From Acidimicrobiales bacterium (GTDB taxonomy: Bacteria; Actinomycetota; Acidimicrobiia; Acidimicrobiales; RAAP-2), in assembly GCA_036560685.1 (NCBI GenBank), contig DATBQT010000049.1:1-30859 (forward strand): 30,859 nt of DNA. Direction: 5' to 3'. Shown piece after piece: positions 16,398 to 23,843 of this stretch (position 1 is the first letter of the stretch; each line of letters opens with the position of its first letter). A program made the translations under genes and the position numbers. The notes under the pieces are model-generated. The model saw nothing but the letters and a program-made list of their open reading frames with translations. It ran no database searches and was not told the DNA's origin.

Positions 16398-17579
16398 TCA
16401 GCGGAGCGCGTCGGCCAGCTCTCTGGCGCGCGCCTCGGGGGTCACGCGGTCGACGACGACGTCGTCGCAGCCGACCCACGTGGCCGCCTCGCGCAGGGCG
16501 GCGGCCACGTGGCGCGGCGCGTCGCGGGTGTGCAGCACGACGTGTCGCGCGTGCAGCGTCGACTTCAGGCGCTTCGGGTCGACGAGGGCGACGAGCCGGT
16601 CGCCCGCGAGCACCGGCATGGCGAAGTACCCCGCGACGCGCAGGTGCTTCGGCACGTAGGCCTCGAGGCGGTAGCGAAGCGAGAACAGCCGCTCGGTGCG
16701 GCCCCGGTCCCACACGAGCGAGTCGAAGGGCGACAGGAGCACCGTGCGGCCGCGCGGCCGGGCATCGAGCGCGCCGAGTGCGCCCCGCGCCGCCCACGCG
16801 GGTTGGTCCCAGCCCTCGACCTCCACGGCTTCGAGCCCCGCGTCGTCGATCGCTCCTCGCACCGACGCCTGGAGCATGCCGTGGTAGGCGGCGAGGTCGG
16901 CGACCGTGGCCACACCGAGCGCGCTCGCCGCCGACGCGACGAGCCCGGCGGCGCACTCCTGGTCGCTCGGCGCTTCCTCGAGCAGCGCTCGGGGAACGGC
17001 TCGCTCCGCGAGGTCGTAGACGCGCTCGAAGCCCCGTCGCTCGCGCGCCACCACCTCGCCGATGTCCAAGAGCCACTCGGCTGCGATCTTGACGTCGGAC
17101 CAGTCCCACCACGACCCGCCTGCCTTCGCGCCACCGAGCTGGCGTGCGGTGAGCGGGCCGTCGGCGACGAGCCGGTCGCGCACGACGCGGCACGCAGCCT
17201 CGCGGTCGTCGAGGTCGTGCCACCGGCGGCCCTTCGCGAGCCGCGCCCGTCGCTTTGCCGCGTACAGCGGCCAGGTCTCGAGCGGGAGCACGCACGCGGC
17301 GTGGGACCAGAACTCGAAGGTCTGCGACGACGGGCCCCAGAAGGCGTCGTCGATCGAGCTGCGGCGAACCGCGCCGAGCCGGGCGTAGGCGACGAGCTCA
17401 TGGGAGCGCGCCAGCACCGAGATCGTGTCGAGCTGCACCGCGCGCAACCGTTGGAGGACCCCCGTCGGGCCGCCCTTGATCCTCGCGCCGAGGAGCCCCT
17501 GTGCGGCGAGTGCGACGCGGCGCGCCTCGCGGGCCGAGAGCGGCGTCGGGTGCGCGCGACCGGGGTCGGTGCTCGTCAG
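16398..17579 (-). CDS. YcaQ/AlkZ-family (HTH_42) winged-helix DNA glycosylase, interstrand crosslink repair type
   Basis: 'ARRVALAAQG', catalytic-type 'VQLD' (QxD as in YcaQ), 'RSHELV..ARLG', 'FEFWSHAA', 'LLSPFD.LVWDR.R..LF...YRLE.YVP...R..GYF'. Start uncertain: CTG 17579 or GTG 17651. Confidence 0.85.
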   Translation of the reverse strand: MTSTDPGRAHPTPLSAREARRVALAAQGLLGARIKGGPTGVLQRLRAVQLDTISVLARSHELVAYARLGAVRRSSIDDAFWGPSSQTFEFWSHAACVLPLETWPLYAAKRRARLAKGRRWHDLDDREAACRVVRDRLVADGPLTARQLGGAKAGGSWWDWSDVKIAAEWLLDIGEVVARERRGFERVYDLAERAVPRALLEEAPSDQECAAGLVASAASALGVATVADLAAYHGMLQASVRGAIDDAGLEAVEVEGWDQPAWAARGALGALDARPRGRTVLLSPFDSLVWDRGRTERLFSLRYRLEAYVPKHLRVAGYFAMPVLAGDRLVALVDPKRLKSTLHARHVVLHTRDAPRHVAAALREAATWVGCDDVVVDRVTPEARARELADALR

Positions 17580-18397
17580 TCGCGCCAGGGTGCGAAGAGG
17601 TCGTCGTCGACGCCGACCCGCCCGAAGGGGTCCACCGCTCGGGTGAACCACTCGTTGCCGAAGACCTGGCGGAACCGGTCGCGTCCCATCTTCAAGAAGA
17701 ACGAGTTGTCGGTCTGGCTCGAGTGCGCGGACAGCGCGTCGAACTTCGCGTCGGCGGCCCCCGAGACGTCGACGATGACCCCGATCGCCTCGTCCGAGGT
17801 GCCGAACGGCGGGTCCTCGCCGTCCGAGCCCGGCCCTTCGATGCCCGCCTCCTCCATGATCTGGCGGAACCGCTTGAATGCGGACTTCGGGATCGCGGTG
17901 TAGTACAGGCTCGCCGTCAGCCCGGACTGCTCGAGCGCGGCGCGCGTGACGCGATTCGCCTGGATGTGGTCGGGGTGGCCGTAGAACCCGTTCTCGTCGT
18001 AGGTGACGACGACCTGCGGGCGCTCCTCGAGCAGGATCGGCACGAGCTTCGCAGCGGCCTCGTCGACGGGCGTCGACCAGAACGAGCCGGGCGCGTCGTT
18101 CTGCGGCCAGCCCTCCATGCCCGAGTCGGGGAACCCCAGCATCTCGAGCCGCGTGACGCCCAGGATCGCGGCCGCGGTCGCGAGCTCGGTGGCGCGGTGC
18201 GCGGCGACCTCGCCAGGCTCATGGTGCTCGAGGTCTGGCGTGGTGCCGTCGGGCGAGTCGCCGAGCGCGCCGTCGGTGCAGGTGACGAGCACGGTCCGGA
18301 TCCCCTGGTCCGCGTAGGTGCGGAGCACCCCGCCCGTCGAGGACGACTCGTCGTCCGGGTGCGCGTGGACGCACAGCATGGTCAGCTGGTCGGTCAT
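17576..18397 (-). CDS. PIG-L/LmbE family Zn deacetylase/amidase (MshB/Mca-like), copy 2
   Basis: Motifs 'VHAHPDDE', 'VTCTDG', 'YDENGFYGHPDH', 'AH.SQ'. ATGA-coupled to copy 1. Confidence 0.9.
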   Translation of the reverse strand: MTDQLTMLCVHAHPDDESSSTGGVLRTYADQGIRTVLVTCTDGALGDSPDGTTPDLEHHEPGEVAAHRATELATAAAILGVTRLEMLGFPDSGMEGWPQNDAPGSFWSTPVDEAAAKLVPILLEERPQVVVTYDENGFYGHPDHIQANRVTRAALEQSGLTASLYYTAIPKSAFKRFRQIMEEAGIEGPGSDGEDPPFGTSDEAIGVIVDVSGAADAKFDALSAHSSQTDNSFFLKMGRDRFRQVFGNEWFTRAVDPFGRVGVDDDLFAPWRD

Positions 18398-19209
18398 CTC
18401 ACTCCTTGGAAGAGGTCGTGCTCGGGCAGCGGCGTGCCCGTCGTGTCGAGGCCGCGCACGTAGCGCTCGACGCCGAAGACGGCGTCGAAGACCTCATCGG
18501 GCATGCCGACGAGGTCCGCGTTGTCCACCTGCGTGGCATGCGCGGCGAGGGCGGCGTGCTTGAGCCGCACCCACTTGGTGCAGTCCACCTCAGTGCCGAC
18601 CAGCTCGTCGGGGGTCCCCCAGTCGGGTGCTTCGAGCCACTCTGGCAGCACCATGCCCGCGTCGCGGGCGAGCTGGAGGAATCCGGCGAGCAGGGACTCG
18701 GGGATCGCGGGGAAGTAGACCTTGGCCGCGGATCCGGTGCGCTCGACCGCCACCATCGTGGCGCGATGGGCGAAGACGTGGTCGGGATGGCCGTAGAAGC
18801 CGCGCTCGTCGTAGGTGACGACGACCTGCGGGCGCTCTTGGTCGATGACCGCGGCGATGCGGTCGGCGACCTCGTCGAGGGGCTGGTTGATGAACGCGGT
18901 CGCGAGCTCGTTCTCGGGCCACCCGAGCATCCCCGAGTCGCGGTAGCCCAGCATCTCGAGGCGGTCCACGCCCAAGAGGCTCGCGGAGGCCTCGAGCTCG
19001 ACTTGGCGCGCCTTGGCGACCGCGGTGCGGTCGTGGCCGTCTTCGTGCGGGCCGATGCCGTCAGGGCCGAACCCGAGGCTGCCGTCGGTGCAGGTCACGA
19101 GCACGCTGCGGACGCCGTCGGCGGCGTACCTCGCCATGACGCCGGCGCTGAACAGCGCCTCGTCGTCGGGGTGTGCGTGGACGCACAGGAGGCACCGCTC
19201 GGCTTGCAC
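18394..19209 (-). CDS. PIG-L/LmbE family Zn deacetylase/amidase (MshB/Mca-like), copy 1
   Basis: Motifs 'VHAHPDDE', 'VTCTDG', 'YDERGFYGHPDH', 'AHATQ'. GTG is 6 nt after TAGGGT. Confidence 0.9.
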   Translation of the reverse strand: MQAERCLLCVHAHPDDEALFSAGVMARYAADGVRSVLVTCTDGSLGFGPDGIGPHEDGHDRTAVAKARQVELEASASLLGVDRLEMLGYRDSGMLGWPENELATAFINQPLDEVADRIAAVIDQERPQVVVTYDERGFYGHPDHVFAHRATMVAVERTGSAAKVYFPAIPESLLAGFLQLARDAGMVLPEWLEAPDWGTPDELVGTEVDCTKWVRLKHAALAAHATQVDNADLVGMPDEVFDAVFGVERYVRGLDTTGTPLPEHDLFQGVR

Positions 19210-19247: not shown

Positions 19248-20846
19248 TCAGGCGACCGCGAGCCGGACGACCCGGATCACCAGCAGCACCGTGGAGGCCG
19301 CGAGGTACAGCCCGATGAGGCCGAAGAGGATGCGCCGCCCCAAGGACTGGGGCGGTTGGGCGAGCAAGGTCAGCCGCGGGGTCCGCCAGTTGAACTTGTC
19401 ACCGTAGGAGTCCGGTGGCGGGGCGGTTGCCGAGCTGCGCGCGAGCAGCGGCGCGAGGACGCAGAACGCCACGACCGCGGCGATCCCGAGCGCCTCGAGG
19501 AGCGGGATCACCGGCGTGCCCGGCAGCACGGTCGTAGCCATGAGCGTCGCCGAGAGCGCGAAGAGCGCGAGGACGATCGCGAGCGAGACGAGGTTCTGGC
19601 CACGCCCGTTGGTCCATGGTCCGAGCACCTCGCGGTCGTTGCACAGCACGAGCGCGAACACCGTCGTCGCTGGCAGCAGGATCCCGCAGGCGGCCTGCAC
19701 CGCGAGCGTGATGATCCCCTGGGCGCGCGGATCGGTCGCGAGCACGGTCGCGCCGGCGACCGCGATGAGGCCCGCGATCATGCCGTAGAAGACCTTGGCG
19801 TCGCGCACCCGCGAGTTGAGCGACTGGCGCAGCCCCGAGACGTCGCCGATCGCGTAGCTGCTGGCAAGCGTGACCGTCGCCGCACCGATAACCGAGGCGT
19901 TGAGCAGCAGGATCGCGAAGAAGGCCCCGGCCCACGGGCCGACGTAGTGCTGCAGGGTCTGTGCGACGCCGAGCGCGTCGGTGTACATGCCCGACGCGGG
20001 CGTCCCCGCGACCCCCGCCGCGACGGCGGCGACGATCATGATGGCCGTGACGATGACGACGAACGCGCCGATGACGGTGTCGGCGCGCTCGTAGTTGAGC
20101 CACCTCGTCGTGATCTTCTTGTCCACGATGTTGGACTGCTGGAAGTACAGCTGCCACGGCGCGACCGTCGTGCCCACGATCGAGATCGTGAGCAGCACCG
20201 CGGGCGGCTTGAAGCCGCCCGCGGCGCCGGGGACGAACAGGCCGTGGAGCACGCCGCCCGAGGGGTGCGACAGCACGAGCAGCGGGATGGCGAGGAGGCT
20301 GACCACGATGAAGACGAACATGATCCGCTCCCAGCGGCGATAGCTGCCCGTCGCGATGATCGCGAGCAGCCCGAGTCCCGCGATCGGGACCGAGATCTCC
20401 GGGCGAACGCCGAAGTAGGTGAGCGAGAGCGCGACGCCGATGAACTCGGTGATGATGATGAGGAAGTTGACCGCAAGGATGCTCGAGACCGCGACGGCCC
20501 CCCAGAGCCGCCCGAAGCGCTCTCGGATCAGGCGGGCGTGGCCGACGCCGGTGACGGCGCCCAGGCGCGCGACCATCTCTTGGTTGACGATGAGGACGGG
20601 GATGCACAGCATCAGGGTCCACAGGAGGGTCAGCCCGTAGTCCTGGCCCGCCTGCGCGTACGTCGAGATTCCGCCGGCGTCGTTGTCGCCGACCGTGACG
20701 ATGAGCCCGGGGCCGATGATCGCGAGAAGCGTGAGCAGGCGTGCGCGTGCGCCGACGCGCGCGCCGACGTCGTGCTCCTGGATGGTCCCGAACGCGCCGA
20801 GGATGTCCTCGGCGCCCCTGCGGTCGTGGCCGCTCTGCGCAGGCAT
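19248..20846 (-). CDS. NRAMP-family divalent metal transporter of the NRMT (Mg2+-type) clade
   Basis: TM1 motif is 'GDNDAGG' rather than the MntH 'DPGN'. TM6 is 'GTTVAPWQLYFQQS'. About 12 TM segments. Strong SD GAGGAGGTG. Confidence 0.9.
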   Translation of the reverse strand: MPAQSGHDRRGAEDILGAFGTIQEHDVGARVGARARLLTLLAIIGPGLIVTVGDNDAGGISTYAQAGQDYGLTLLWTLMLCIPVLIVNQEMVARLGAVTGVGHARLIRERFGRLWGAVAVSSILAVNFLIIITEFIGVALSLTYFGVRPEISVPIAGLGLLAIIATGSYRRWERIMFVFIVVSLLAIPLLVLSHPSGGVLHGLFVPGAAGGFKPPAVLLTISIVGTTVAPWQLYFQQSNIVDKKITTRWLNYERADTVIGAFVVIVTAIMIVAAVAAGVAGTPASGMYTDALGVAQTLQHYVGPWAGAFFAILLLNASVIGAATVTLASSYAIGDVSGLRQSLNSRVRDAKVFYGMIAGLIAVAGATVLATDPRAQGIITLAVQAACGILLPATTVFALVLCNDREVLGPWTNGRGQNLVSLAIVLALFALSATLMATTVLPGTPVIPLLEALGIAAVVAFCVLAPLLARSSATAPPPDSYGDKFNWRTPRLTLLAQPPQSLGRRILFGLIGLYLAASTVLLVIRVVRLAVA

Positions 20847-21042
20847 GTCACCTCCTCTGGTCGTTGTGCGGGCGCCGCCGCACGCGTCACGACGAGGAGG
20901 AGGCGAACCCCCTTCTTCGGCGTGCAGCGCGAGGCAGCATCGGTTCGAGCCGCCAGCGGCGGCTCGGTCTACTTGGGGGTTGCAGCTGCCCCCCCTTCGC
21001 TCGGCGCAGGATCCCGCCGACGGCGCACCTCGACGACGGCGG
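20847..21042 (-). promoter_or_regulatory. structured intercistronic leader of the NRAMP-type transporter; candidate translational riboswitch/attenuator
   Basis: Anti-SD CCUCCUC(CUC) (20894-20903) is complementary to the SD (20851-20857) within a three-segment hairpin. There is a 9-bp hairpin at 20946-20966 and two crossing helices. See findings. Confidence 0.55.
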
Positions 21043-22302
21043 TCACTCCTCGACCGCCGTCATGCCGAAGTCGCGCCGCCAGCCCTGCGGCAACAGGAGC
21101 TCGAGCAGGTCGTCGACGGTGACCACACCGAGGACGCGCCCATGGCTCTCCTCGAGGACCGGGACGACGGTCAGGTTGAAGTCGCTCATGGTCCGAGCGA
21201 TGCGGTGCACGTCCCAGTGGGGGTGGACGTGGGCGGGGTCCGCCCGCATGACGTCGGCCACGTGGGCGGTCGGGCGCGAGCGGACGAGGGTGACGACGGG
21301 CACGGAGCCGGCGAGGCGACCGTCGTCGTCGAGGGCGAACACGACGTTCAGCGCCTCGATCGGCGCGGTCGCGGTGCGCGTCGCGTCGAGCGCCTCCTCG
21401 ACGGTGGCGGTCGCGGCGACGCCCACGTAGTCCGGGCTCATGAGCCCGCCGGCCGACTCGGCGGGATAGCTGAGCAGATTGCGCACCTTGCGCTGCTGTG
21501 GCTCGGCCATGAGCTCGAGCAGCGGGAGTCGGCGCTCCTGGTCCACCTCGCTGATCAGGTCGGCCGCGTCGTCCGGGGCCATCCGCGAGAGCAGCCGCGC
21601 CGCGTCGTCATCGGAGCGCTGGTCGATGAACTCCAGCTGGTGCTCGGTGTCGAGCTCTTCGAACACGTCCGCCTCGAGCTCCCGGTCGAGCCCGACGGCC
21701 TCGATGATCTCCTCACCCTCCTCGTGGCTCGCCGCCTCGACGAGGTCGGCGATCTGGGCTGGGTGCAGCTTGGACAGCCGCCGGTAGGGGATGCGCAGCC
21801 TGGCCGAGGGCACGTGGCCCACGAACGGCTCGATCTGTGCGAAGTCGACGAGCGACGTCGTCGCCACCTTGCTCCCGAGGCGGCCACCGAGCAGGCGCCG
21901 CAGCAGCGGGCGGCGACCGACGTCGACGCCCACCACCTCCCAGGTGCCCTCGACGTTGGCGAGCTCGATCTCATTGGCGGTGATCAACCGCCCTCGGACG
22001 AAGTTGATGAGGTGGCGCGCCAGCAGGTCGTGCGCGAGCAGCACCTCGCCGGGGCGACGCTCGAAACGGCGCAGGTCCACTCTCTTGCCCTCGAAGCGCG
22101 CGCGGCCCCGCTCGAACGAGGCGACCTTGCGGATGGGCACGAACAGGTCGCGGCCCTCGATGCGAACGACGACGCCGACCACGGGCGGGTGCGAGCCGCC
22201 GAGCCGCGCGACGACGTCCTCGATGCGCCCGATGCGCTCGCCGTCGCGGTCGACGAGCGGTCGGTGGATGACAGAGGAGAGGTGGAGGAGCTCGAGGGGC
22301 AT
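21043..22302 (-). CDS. soluble PRC-barrel + MgtE N-terminal + tandem CBS domain protein (no membrane domain)
   Basis: 'RPLVDRDGERIGRIEDVV' (PRC), 'LSKLHPAQIADLVE' and 'MAPDDAADL' (MgtE_N repeats), 'AGGLMSPDYV' and 'MSDFNLTVVPV...GVVTVDDLLE' (CBS). No hydrophobic TM stretch. Start at ATG 22302. Confidence 0.88.
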   Translation of the reverse strand: MPLELLHLSSVIHRPLVDRDGERIGRIEDVVARLGGSHPPVVGVVVRIEGRDLFVPIRKVASFERGRARFEGKRVDLRRFERRPGEVLLAHDLLARHLINFVRGRLITANEIELANVEGTWEVVGVDVGRRPLLRRLLGGRLGSKVATTSLVDFAQIEPFVGHVPSARLRIPYRRLSKLHPAQIADLVEAASHEEGEEIIEAVGLDRELEADVFEELDTEHQLEFIDQRSDDDAARLLSRMAPDDAADLISEVDQERRLPLLELMAEPQQRKVRNLLSYPAESAGGLMSPDYVGVAATATVEEALDATRTATAPIEALNVVFALDDDGRLAGSVPVVTLVRSRPTAHVADVMRADPAHVHPHWDVHRIARTMSDFNLTVVPVLEESHGRVLGVVTVDDLLELLLPQGWRRDFGMTAVEE

Positions 22303-22363
22303 GTCGTGGGTCCTGTCGACGCCCGCACAGGGCGACGCAAGGCTACCCGTTCGCCCTCGTGCC

Positions 22364-23374
22364 TCAGAGGGTGCGGAGGGCGGCAATGGCCGCGTCGAGC
22401 TTGTCGTCATCGACGTCGGCGTGCGTGACGAGTCGCGCGAGACGCGGCCCGACGGTCCCGATGAGCACGTTGCTCGCGGCCAGTCGCTCGACGAGCTCGT
22501 CGACGTGAGGGTGCTCGAAGACCACGATGTTCGTGCGGCACGCCCCTGGGTCGTAGTCGGGCGCGACGGTGTCGGCGACCGCCTCGGCGAGCCGTCGCGC
22601 GCGTGCGTGGTCGTCCGCGAGTCGCTCGACCATGGTGCGCAGCGCCACGAGGCCGGCGGCTGCGATGACGCCCGCCTGGCGCATGCCGCCGCCCAGGCGC
22701 TTGCGCTCGTCGCGGCTCTCGGCCATCACGTCGGACCCACCTGCGAGCAGCGAGCCGACCGGCGCGCAGAGCCCCTTGGACAGACAGCTCATGACCGTCG
22801 TCGCGGGTGCCGCGAGCTCGGCGGCACCGCACTCGAGCGCGATGGCGGCATTGAAGAGGCGTGCGCCGTCGAGGTGCACGGGCACGCCCTGCGCTGCAGC
22901 GACCATCGCTGCGGTCTGGGGGGCGGTGACGGGCACCCCGCCCGATGCCATGTGGGTGTTCTCGAGCGCGAGGAGCCCCACGGCGGGCTGGTGGTAGGCC
23001 TCGGCGTCGACCGCCGCGCGGATCGCGTCGGGATCGAGAGGGCCGGTCGTGTCGTCGAGAGTCCGAAACTGGACGCCCGCGTTCCTCGCCGCGGCACCCA
23101 TCTCGAAGGCGACGACGTGGTGCAGCGTGCCGGCGACCACGACGTCGCCGGGTCGCGTGAGCAGGCGCAGGGCGATCTGGTTCGCCATCACCCCGGAGGG
23201 AACGAAGACCGCGGCGGGCTTGCCGACCATCTCGGCGTAGAGCTCTTCGAGCTGGGTGACCGTCGGGTCCTCGCCCCAGCCGTCGTCGCCGACCTCGGCG
23301 TCGGCCATCGCCGCGCGCATCGCGGGCGTGGGCTTGGTGACCGTGTCGCTTCGCAGGTCCACGACGGGTGACAC
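22364..23374 (-). CDS. ltaE: low-specificity L-threonine aldolase (PLP)
   Basis: Motifs 'DLRSDTVT.PT..MR.AM..AEVGDD..GEDPTV', 'LENTH', 'HLDGARLFNA', 'CLSKGL.APVGS', 'GGGMRQAG'. Confidence 0.93.
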   Translation of the reverse strand: MSPVVDLRSDTVTKPTPAMRAAMADAEVGDDGWGEDPTVTQLEELYAEMVGKPAAVFVPSGVMANQIALRLLTRPGDVVVAGTLHHVVAFEMGAAARNAGVQFRTLDDTTGPLDPDAIRAAVDAEAYHQPAVGLLALENTHMASGGVPVTAPQTAAMVAAAQGVPVHLDGARLFNAAIALECGAAELAAPATTVMSCLSKGLCAPVGSLLAGGSDVMAESRDERKRLGGGMRQAGVIAAAGLVALRTMVERLADDHARARRLAEAVADTVAPDYDPGACRTNIVVFEHPHVDELVERLAASNVLIGTVGPRLARLVTHADVDDDKLDAAIAALRTL

Positions 23375-23380
23375 GCGCCG

Positions 23381-23422
23381 ATGCTACCGGCGAGGTTCGA
23401 GGCGCCCCGTGGGTCCTACACT
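23381..23422. promoter_or_regulatory. divergent leaderless promoters for ltaE (TAGCAT, minus, 23381-23386) and the thioesterase (TACACT, plus, 23417-23422)
   Basis: TANNNT hexamers 6 and 7 nt before the respective GTG starts. Confidence 0.5.
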
Positions 23423-23429
23423 CGCCGCC

Positions 23430-23843
23430 GTGGCCGACCGGGAGCGTGACCTCGCGGCGATGGCGTCCGGCGGGATCCACGCGATGCTCGGCGTCGAGAT
23501 CGTCGAGGCGAGCGCGCAGCGCGTGGAGCTCCACCTCGAGGTCGGACCGAAGGTGCACCAGCCATTCGGGATCCTCCATGGTGGCGTCTCGGCGCTGCTG
23601 GCGGAGTCCGCGGCGAGCATCGGCGGCTCGTTCGCCGCGCCTGAGGGGCACATGGTCGTGGGCATCGAGCTCAACGCGAACCACGTTCGATCCATGCGCG
23701 ACGGCACCCTCACGGCGGTCGCGACGCCGGTGCACGCCGGGCGACGGATCCAGGTCTGGAACATCGAGCTCACCGACGACCTGGGCCGGACCATCTGCGT
23801 CTCGAGGTGCACGCTCGCGGTGCTCGAGGCCGCTCGCGAGTAG
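23430..23843 (+). CDS. PaaI/hotdog-fold thioesterase (YdiI/MenI-like)
   Basis: Motifs 'HQPFGILHGGVSALLAES.AS', 'VGIELNANH.R', 'H.GRR.QVW'. GTG is 7 nt after TACACT. Confidence 0.88.
   Translation: MADRERDLAAMASGGIHAMLGVEIVEASAQRVELHLEVGPKVHQPFGILHGGVSALLAESAASIGGSFAAPEGHMVVGIELNANHVRSMRDGTLTAVATPVHAGRRIQVWNIELTDDLGRTICVSRCTLAVLEAARE

Follow-up and report, generated by a model that had tools for sequence, protein, structure and literature searches.

What occupies the 196-nucleotide (nt) gap between a PRC-barrel/MgtE_N/CBS gene and an NRAMP-family transporter gene on contig DATBQT010000049.1 of an Acidimicrobiales bacterium (assembly GCA_036560685.1), and how might it control the transporter? 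The window, that is, the whole 30,859-nt stretch of this contig that was analyzed, comes from a 69% complete Acidimicrobiaceae-type metagenome-assembled genome (MAG); the gap lies at positions 20847-21042 of the minus strand, as do all features of the window described below. A preliminary description had proposed a new metal-ion riboswitch here, with a pseudoknotted upstream region and a downstream helix that masks the Shine-Dalgarno (SD) sequence of the transporter gene. Our analysis retains the masking helix and replaces the riboswitch: with a probability of about 0.65, the gap is a leader-peptide translational control element, in which ribosomes on a short leader open reading frame (ORF), hereafter the uORF, unmask the SD of the transporter gene.

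The identities of the two flanking genes were borne out by the Pfam matches and by a match to a solved transporter structure. The upstream gene (21043-22410; TGA stop, 21045-21043) encodes a 455-amino-acid (aa) protein with PRC-barrel (PF05239), MgtE_N (PF03448), and CBS (PF00571) domains. This product is soluble, without a membrane domain, and covers only 27 to 251 of the 450 positions of the NCBIfam mgtE model, below its cutoff and confined to the cytoplasmic part of the model. The downstream gene (19248-20846; ATG, 20846-20844) encodes a 532-aa protein that matches Pfam Nramp at 2e-72. Its top solved relative is the Eggerthella lenta NRMT (PDB 7QIA, 4.8e-54), with transporters of the MntH types at 2e-18 or weaker. 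Read from the sequence, the protein carries DAGG and APW motifs where canonical NRAMPs have DPGN and MPH, which we take to denote an altered metal site; the meaning of these motifs reportedly goes back to work by Ramanadane et al. in 2022. Judged by its sequence, the regulated gene is a member of the NRMT clade of the SLC11/NRAMP family.

The order of an MgtE_N/CBS gene, a gap of ~150 to 200 nt, and an NRMT gene recurs at ~100 loci in Acidimicrobiales MAGs, and the SD-masking architecture recurs, with covariation, in ~70 Acidimicrobiaceae genomes. The sequences compared come from related MAGs, and the counts given here overstate their independence. Alignment of the gaps revealed a core consisting of GUUC[A/U]AAGGGGG, 4 to 6 nt, and CUGAAACCCCCNAGUACC. 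Downstream of the core are a conserved CUAG and a C-rich tract and, ~55 nt further, the invariant NRMT SD GAAAGGAGG. In every gap examined, the leader is placed between the MgtE_N/CBS gene and the NRMT gene.

Within the window, the conserved core marks the beginning of a uORF (20887-20985) that would start at CTG (20985-20983), a start codon in NCBI translation table 11, run for 32 sense codons (LQPPSRPSRRWRLEPMLPRAARRRRGFASSSS), and end at TGA (20889-20887); the first residue is Met if CTG initiates. It is preceded by an SD-like purine run, AAGGGGGGG (20989-20997), which is nearly invariant in two alignments (A1 and A2). The spacer between the purine run and CTG is 3 nt in the window (CAG, 20988-20986); measured by a shorter regular-expression match, the distance from the G-run to CTG or ATG is 4 to 6 nt in 69 of 71 unique relatives. 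The N-terminal codons CAA CCC CCA AGT (Q-P-P-S; 20971-20982) place consecutive prolines at codons 3 and 4. The window peptide thus starts (M)QPPSR, where most relatives have (M)KPPST, encoded by AAA CCC CCN AGU ACC. Overall, a short ORF with its own SD-like run and start codon lies upstream of the NRMT gene.

The comparative signs of coding are strong, and the uORF looks translated. Across the 71 unique leader sequences, codon 1 is CTG (n = 69) or ATG (n = 2), codon 3 is CCC (n = 65), CCT (n = 5), or CCG (n = 1), and codon 4 is CCT (n = 37), CCA (n = 23), CCC (n = 6), CCG (n = 4), or ACT (n = 1). The varying sites of the core are therefore the wobble positions of proline codons, which change synonymously only, with the single ACT as the exception. 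The conserved CUAG corresponds to the uORF stop, where TAG (n = 48), TGA (n = 16), and TAA (n = 7) are swapped at one alignment position and near relatives differ only by TGA versus TAA. Most uORFs (49/71) are 24 or 25 codons long (full range, 16 to 33). The other two frames are shut at once by TGA and TAG within the core motif; in the ORF body, frame +1 has stops in 52/71 sequences, while frame 0 has none before the terminal stop, by construction. Past the first 5 or 6 residues, the peptide diverges freely over ~20 poorly conserved residues. In the window's clade, insertions and deletions within the uORF measure 3 and 6 nt, and the stop alternates between TGA and TAG. No canonical in-frame start lies upstream of the uORF in 64/74 sequences. 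Read-through of the upstream gene's stop was considered as a source of the open frame and ruled out, because the uORF is not in a fixed frame with respect to that stop (the three frames hold 52, 20, and 2 sequences). One further stretch of the uORF body, GACACAACYUCGC (columns 108 to 120 of alignment A1; codons T-Q-L/P-R), is moderately conserved in the main clade and lacks a counterpart in the window; its conservation is explained neither by coding nor by any helix found.

At the 3' end of the gap, the preliminary description proved correct. It had proposed an OFF state in which the anti-SD CCUCCUC (20900-20894) pairs with GAGGAGG (20857-20851), extended by GUCGU/ACGAC and an inner hairpin, and the fold of the window's sequence contains these pairings. 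The fold (20841-20906; 66 nt) has a free energy of -34.6 kcal/mol and a z-score of -3.68, with 1 in 200 dinucleotide shuffles folding as well. The anti-SD tract, CCUCCUCCUC (20894-20903), consists of the last uORF codons in the window and pairs with the NRMT SD (GAGGAGG, 20851-20857) in the minimum free energy (MFE) structure. The inner stem-loop of this SD-masking hairpin (20860-20893; GUCGU/ACGAC and GUGCGG/CCGCAC) contains the uORF stop.

The same switch logic is conserved in relatives, since the NRMT SD is masked in nearly all of ~70 related leaders. Its AGGAG is invariant in 58 leaders, its median predicted unpaired probability is 0.06 to 0.08, and the hairpin has a median z-score of -3.0 over 72 sequences. 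At least 4 nt of the SD are paired in 57/68 local folds. In 45 of these 57, the partner of the SD starts 0 to 5 nt past the uORF stop; in 9 it starts 4 to 15 nt before the stop, including the window's clade (-14 to -15). From clade to clade, the inner hairpins change in sequence while the architecture is kept. In a model-based alignment (A5), 74.6% of cells are paired versus at most 55% in slid controls, and the covariation score is 0.143, a value reached by none of 500 shuffles, versus at most 0.094 in the slid controls. The SD-masking expression platform is thus conserved, a feature common to riboswitches and leader-peptide switches, and the downstream ribosome binding site (RBS) is sequestered in a stem-loop that the uORF overlaps or abuts.

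A second hairpin, P1 (20975-20995), pairs GGGGG (20995-20991) with CCCCC (20979-20975) and is present in the window's MFE structure. Its 3' arm consists of proline codon 3 and two bases of proline codon 4, and the CTG start is in its loop. P1 (5 bp) was the sole helix called by RNAalifold on 58 whole leaders, aligned with MAFFT, which does not align the variable hairpins of the leaders. The P1 pairs are kept in 56 to 58 of the 58 leaders, with one double change (GGAGG/CCUCC, in loci L064 and L081) and three G-U pairs. Because the wobble position of codon 3, inside P1, is constrained and that of codon 4, outside P1, is free, this region seems to be both coding and paired. In the folding model, P1 would mask the uORF's own SD. 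A column-pair scan of this alignment for long-range helices returned only P1 and a weak 4-bp pairing between the G-run and a post-stop GCCC. The 9-bp hairpin of the preliminary description (20946-20966; uORF codons 7 to 13) does exist and is 100% paired in the five sequences of the window's clade, but it is invariant there and absent outside that clade. At the same place, other clades have different short hairpins (e.g., GGCC/GGCC and GUGACC/GGUCAC). A complementarity of the 5' flank GGUCACG with the hairpin arm CGUGGUU, present in several clades, was dropped after no covariation could be demonstrated.

The leader has a narrow distribution. A covariance model built on its conserved core (R1) matched one copy per genome in 26/151 genomes of the family, in few genera and always between the MgtE_N/CBS and NRMT genes; in the rest of the class, 148 genomes gave no match. 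Elsewhere in the family, genera without the KPPS core have ATG-started uORFs encoding M(M)EPPDT or MEPPHS at the equivalent place, and further genera without the KPPS core have SD-N5-6-CTG-AGT-ACC uORFs there. We observed the M(M)EPPDTDSY uORF at offset 21 to 92 of the intergenic region of locus L016 (~L016:1141-1212, an inferred position) and the MEPPHSRQ uORF at offset 60 to 206 of that of L009 (~L009:1141-1287, also inferred). Both follow the MgtE_N/CBS gene, and their acidic, proline-containing N termini are much like that of Salmonella MgtL (MEPDPTP). Because these uORFs stop 180 to 290 nt before the NRMT start, the leaders of the MEPP-type genera must work somewhat differently. In a close relative (G006; loci L023, L094, and L129), the NRMT protein matches in two pieces (residues 6 to 196 and 193 to 532) and its ATG is replaced; as read from the sequence, the NRMT gene may be broken there while the leader ORF and the hairpin are intact.

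These elements can be combined into a mechanism with three parts: a uORF with an SD-like G-run, a weak CTG start, and the sequence (M)-[K/Q]-P-P-S-[T/R] before its variable remainder; P1, which would pair the G-run with the Pro-Pro codons; and a long hairpin in which a CCUCC-type anti-SD, at the end of the uORF or 0 to 5 nt past its stop, would bury the NRMT SD. The entry channel and helicase of the ribosome reach ~11 to 13 nt ahead of the P site. A ribosome on the last uORF codons or the stop would therefore have to open the anti-SD:SD helix and would transiently free the NRMT SD. NRMT synthesis would then depend on the number of ribosomes that complete the uORF. Folding with a 28- to 31-nt ribosome footprint held single stranded is consistent with such coupling. 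The median unpaired probability of the SD was 0.01 to 0.07 without a ribosome or with one elsewhere in the uORF and 0.20 with a ribosome on the last three codons; for the window, it rose from 0.18 to a value between 0.25 and 0.37 with a ribosome on the last codons.

The flux of ribosomes would be set at the 5' end of the uORF by the weak CTG start, by masking of the uORF SD in P1, and by the prolines at codons 3 and 4. At these codons the nascent chain would be 3 or 4 residues long, and the peptidyl-tRNA might stall or drop off unless elongation factor P (EF-P), prolyl-tRNA, and Mg2+ were adequate. Consecutive prolines on a short nascent chain promote peptidyl-tRNA drop-off, which EF-P relieves (PMC8934632), and CCC-C is a frameshift-prone sequon in Escherichia coli (PMC8129111). 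A stall-activated variant, in which a ribosome halted at Pro-Pro frees the G-run to capture the anti-SD, was not supported by folding at equilibrium: the SD was unpaired with a probability of only 0.03 to 0.07 and the G-run paired with the anti-SD with a probability of 0.09.

What the leader would sense is a separate matter. A link to Mg2+ is plausible by context, since NRMT homologues in Mycobacterium carry the Mg2+ riboswitch known as the M-box. As a tentative extension, which we hold with much less confidence than the leader-peptide control itself, the leader may be a ribosome-based sensor of Mg2+ or of translation capacity, of independent origin in Acidimicrobiaceae and in the role that the M-box has in other Actinomycetota. 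Stalling or drop-off at Pro-Pro, dependent on Mg2+, EF-P, or prolyl-tRNA, would then set how often the anti-SD is melted and hence the amount of NRMT, alongside a separately encoded Mg2+ sensor of the MgtE type in the cytoplasm, which may gate the transporter posttranslationally.

Several observations weigh against control by a translated leader. The sequencing runs listed for this stretch are DNA metagenomes, with no RNA run among them. CTG is a rare and weak start codon in bacteria. The gap-length test gives little help, with multiples of 3 in 4/7 gap events inside the uORF and 12/52 outside. The AAA/CAA and AGT codons (20971-20982) are never synonymously replaced in the 71 sequences, and thus some nucleotide-level constraint exists beyond coding. 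We note that these are GC-poor codons in a GC-rich genome; their fixation hints at a codon- or nucleotide-level constraint, such as initiation context, slow decoding, or structure. In folds with longer context, 24/59 sequences pair the SD with an upstream tract internal to the uORF and not with one at its end, although the SD is still sequestered, and still by C-rich sequence of the uORF. In the wider folds, the choice of such alternative C-rich partners leaves uORF length only weakly correlated with the position of the anti-SD (r = 0.28). Acidic residues, present in MgtL and MgtQ, are absent from the window peptide. Equilibrium folding shows no alternative structure that would convert a Pro-Pro stall into release of the SD. 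Finally, under simple coupling, slower translation of Pro-Pro at low Mg2+ would yield less importer, which is the wrong sign for homeostasis; effects of Mg2+ on the stability of P1 or the hairpin, or a logic of translation capacity, could reverse or replace that sign.

Three other explanations have to be weighed against leader-peptide control. Under the riboswitch proposal, the ligand state of an upstream aptamer sensing Mg2+ or Mn2+, pseudoknotted or not, would decide whether the anti-SD pairs with the SD. Such a switch would draw on a real and conserved expression platform and on a highly conserved core that includes a hairpin, and the downstream gene is a Mg2+ transporter type under riboswitch control elsewhere (PMC4072509). 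Tested on the window's clade (five sequences), however, the upstream helices fared poorly. Pairs form in just 48% of cells for the first helix of the pseudoknot, GGGGCAGC/GCUGCCUC, and in 74% for the second, AACCCCC/GGGGGUU, without covariation. The ON helix between the G-run and the anti-SD is paired in 72% of cells, yet registers slid by 1 to 3 columns give 54 to 69%, because a G-run facing a C/U-run pairs in this way in any register. A generic aptamer would have several covarying helices around conserved unpaired nucleotides, independent of any reading frame; the leader has a single 5-bp helix upstream and ~55 nt of poor conservation from the core to the stop, and the conserved positions show codon periodicity and follow codon logic (wobble variation, interchangeable stops, and a CTG/ATG swap). 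The element is also limited to a single copy per genome and a single gene context. No M-box, yybP-ykoY, or NiCo riboswitch was matched, in line with the preliminary description for the first two: the window has no Rfam match at gathering thresholds, and the gap has only chance, unrelated matches at an E value of ≤10. The same search finds the M-box at 131 to 152 bits in five other loci, which shows that it can detect this family. A ligand-binding aptamer as the sensor is very unlikely, and we regard the metal riboswitch as a whole as highly improbable.

The nucleotide-level invariance of AAA and AGT would fit an untranslated RNA element, in which a protein would bind, or processing would occur, at the hairpin of G-run and C-run and its flanks, and the reading frame would be open by chance. 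One example of a binding partner, as a translational autoregulator, would be the Mg2+-sensor protein (PRC-barrel/MgtE_N/CBS) encoded at this locus, and the element does always follow the gene for this protein. The constraint on the codon 3 wobble position fits P1, and CTG is a poor start. Such an element would leave unexplained the four-way wobble variation of codon 4, the TAG, TGA, and TAA kept at one position, the uORF length of 24 to 25 codons, the change from CTG to ATG, the SD-like spacing, and the ATG-started MEPP uORFs of other genera; we consider it unlikely. The conserved length of the ORF could also reflect a functional small protein that acts in trans and not as a cis leader, for example, as a transporter regulator like MgtR or MgtS; MgtR and MgtU are named as small regulators of Mg2+ transporters in PMC8092293. 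Only the first 5 or 6 residues are conserved, though, with the remainder diverging freely, and the window peptide is hydrophilic and basic and lacks a membrane segment. The end of the ORF is moreover tied to the position of the anti-SD, which argues for a role in cis, and a small protein acting in trans appears to be the least probable of the three explanations.

The closest functional parallel to leader-peptide control of this kind is found in Salmonella, where ribosomes translating mgtQ, an intergenic ORF of 8 codons, free the masked RBS of mgtB, which encodes a Mg2+ transporter (Choi et al., mBio 2021, PMC8092293). In both cases, a short intergenic ORF within an operon immediately precedes a Mg2+ transporter gene with its RBS in an inhibitory stem-loop. 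For mgtQ, and as proposed here, hard-to-translate codons near the N terminus of the ORF matter, and ribosomes on the ORF release the RBS. There is no sequence relation between the two. While mgtQ has 8 codons, an ATG start, critical acidic residues (Asp2 and Glu5), and a dispensable proline codon, the leader described here has 16 to 33 codons, a CTG start, and a K/Q-P-P-S motif, with an anti-SD at the end of the ORF in place of the 1:2/2:3 alternative of mgtQ. It also precedes an NRMT gene and not a P-type ATPase gene and belongs to Actinomycetota. Homology to the mgtQ or MgtL families was not found, as neither the window nor the main clade has acidic positions 2 and 5 or a MEPDPTP-type N terminus; MEPP[D/H] N termini occur in two other genera only.

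The MgtL (mgtA) and MgtP (mgtCBR) leaders of Salmonella and E. coli, in which ribosome behavior at proline codons reports Mg2+, EF-P, or prolyl-tRNA (PMC8092293 and PMC8934632), are likewise proline-containing leader peptides ahead of Mg2+ transporter genes. They act on transcription elongation and Rho termination in the 5' leader, whereas here the SD is masked and there is no terminator-like site. MgtL further depends on intrinsic ribosome destabilization by acidic residues and prolines, and the window peptide lacks acidic residues (the MEPPDT variants occur in other genera). In the translation attenuation of erm and cat genes, a leader ORF also precedes a hairpin over the downstream SD, and ribosome position decides access to the SD. 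There, the RNA is refolded by a ribosome that a drug has halted partway through the ORF; for the present leader, no conserved helix was found that could serve as an alternative connecting a stall site to the anti-SD.

The M-box (ykoK, RF00380) occupies the same regulatory niche, in that it controls NRMT-type genes. Clostridial NrmT is under M-box control (PMC4072509), and the preliminary description had named NRAMP-related Mg2+ importers as M-box targets; cmscan matched the M-box upstream of Mycobacterium NRMT homologues. In four Mycobacterium-type loci (M. gordonae, M. asiaticum, a Mycobacterium sp., and a related MAG; L098:2349-2522, L100:2428-2601, L103:2418-2591, and L104:2264-2437), an M-box (148 to 152 bits) lies 400 to 650 nt upstream of the NRMT homologue. 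Another M-box (L097:4699-4908) follows the NRMT gene and presumably acts on the gene after it. The Acidimicrobiaceae loci lack an M-box and have, besides this leader, a cytoplasmic sensor protein of the MgtE type encoded by a gene of its own; the window contains no three-helix aptamer, and the sensor would be the ribosome, not the RNA.

The surroundings of the gap suggest a longer operon. Upstream of the MgtE_N/CBS gene is a 442-aa ORF (22407-23735) without a Pfam or NCBIfam match, whose stop shares 4 nt (ATGA) with the start of the MgtE_N/CBS gene. Because of this overlap, its sequence layout suggests an operon comprising the gene of the 442-aa ORF, the sensor protein gene, the leader ORF, and the NRMT gene. 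Directly downstream of the NRMT gene are two tandem PIG-L genes (17576-19209; GlcNAc-PI de-N-acetylase family, MshB/Mca-like), the first of which begins 38 nt past the NRMT stop. No promoter and no terminator was found when the gap was scanned, with a σ70-type consensus as the only promoter model.

For those searching for RNA motifs, this locus carries a caution, as an SD together with Pro-Pro codons can look like a strongly conserved GC-rich "hairpin." The leader would also offer a compact system for studying the way in which translational coupling is set by weak starts and by Pro-Pro codons at the very beginning of an ORF. It bears on what replaces the M-box where that riboswitch is absent and on how RNA-level control is combined with a split MgtE-type sensor protein. 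If leader-peptide control is correct, ribosome-read leaders before Mg2+ importers would reach beyond the enterobacterial mgtA and mgtCB systems to the NRMT class of transporters and to an actinobacterial lineage of high GC content, and they would have been invented there independently, with a start codon other than AUG, Pro-Pro near the N terminus, and an anti-SD at the stop codon.

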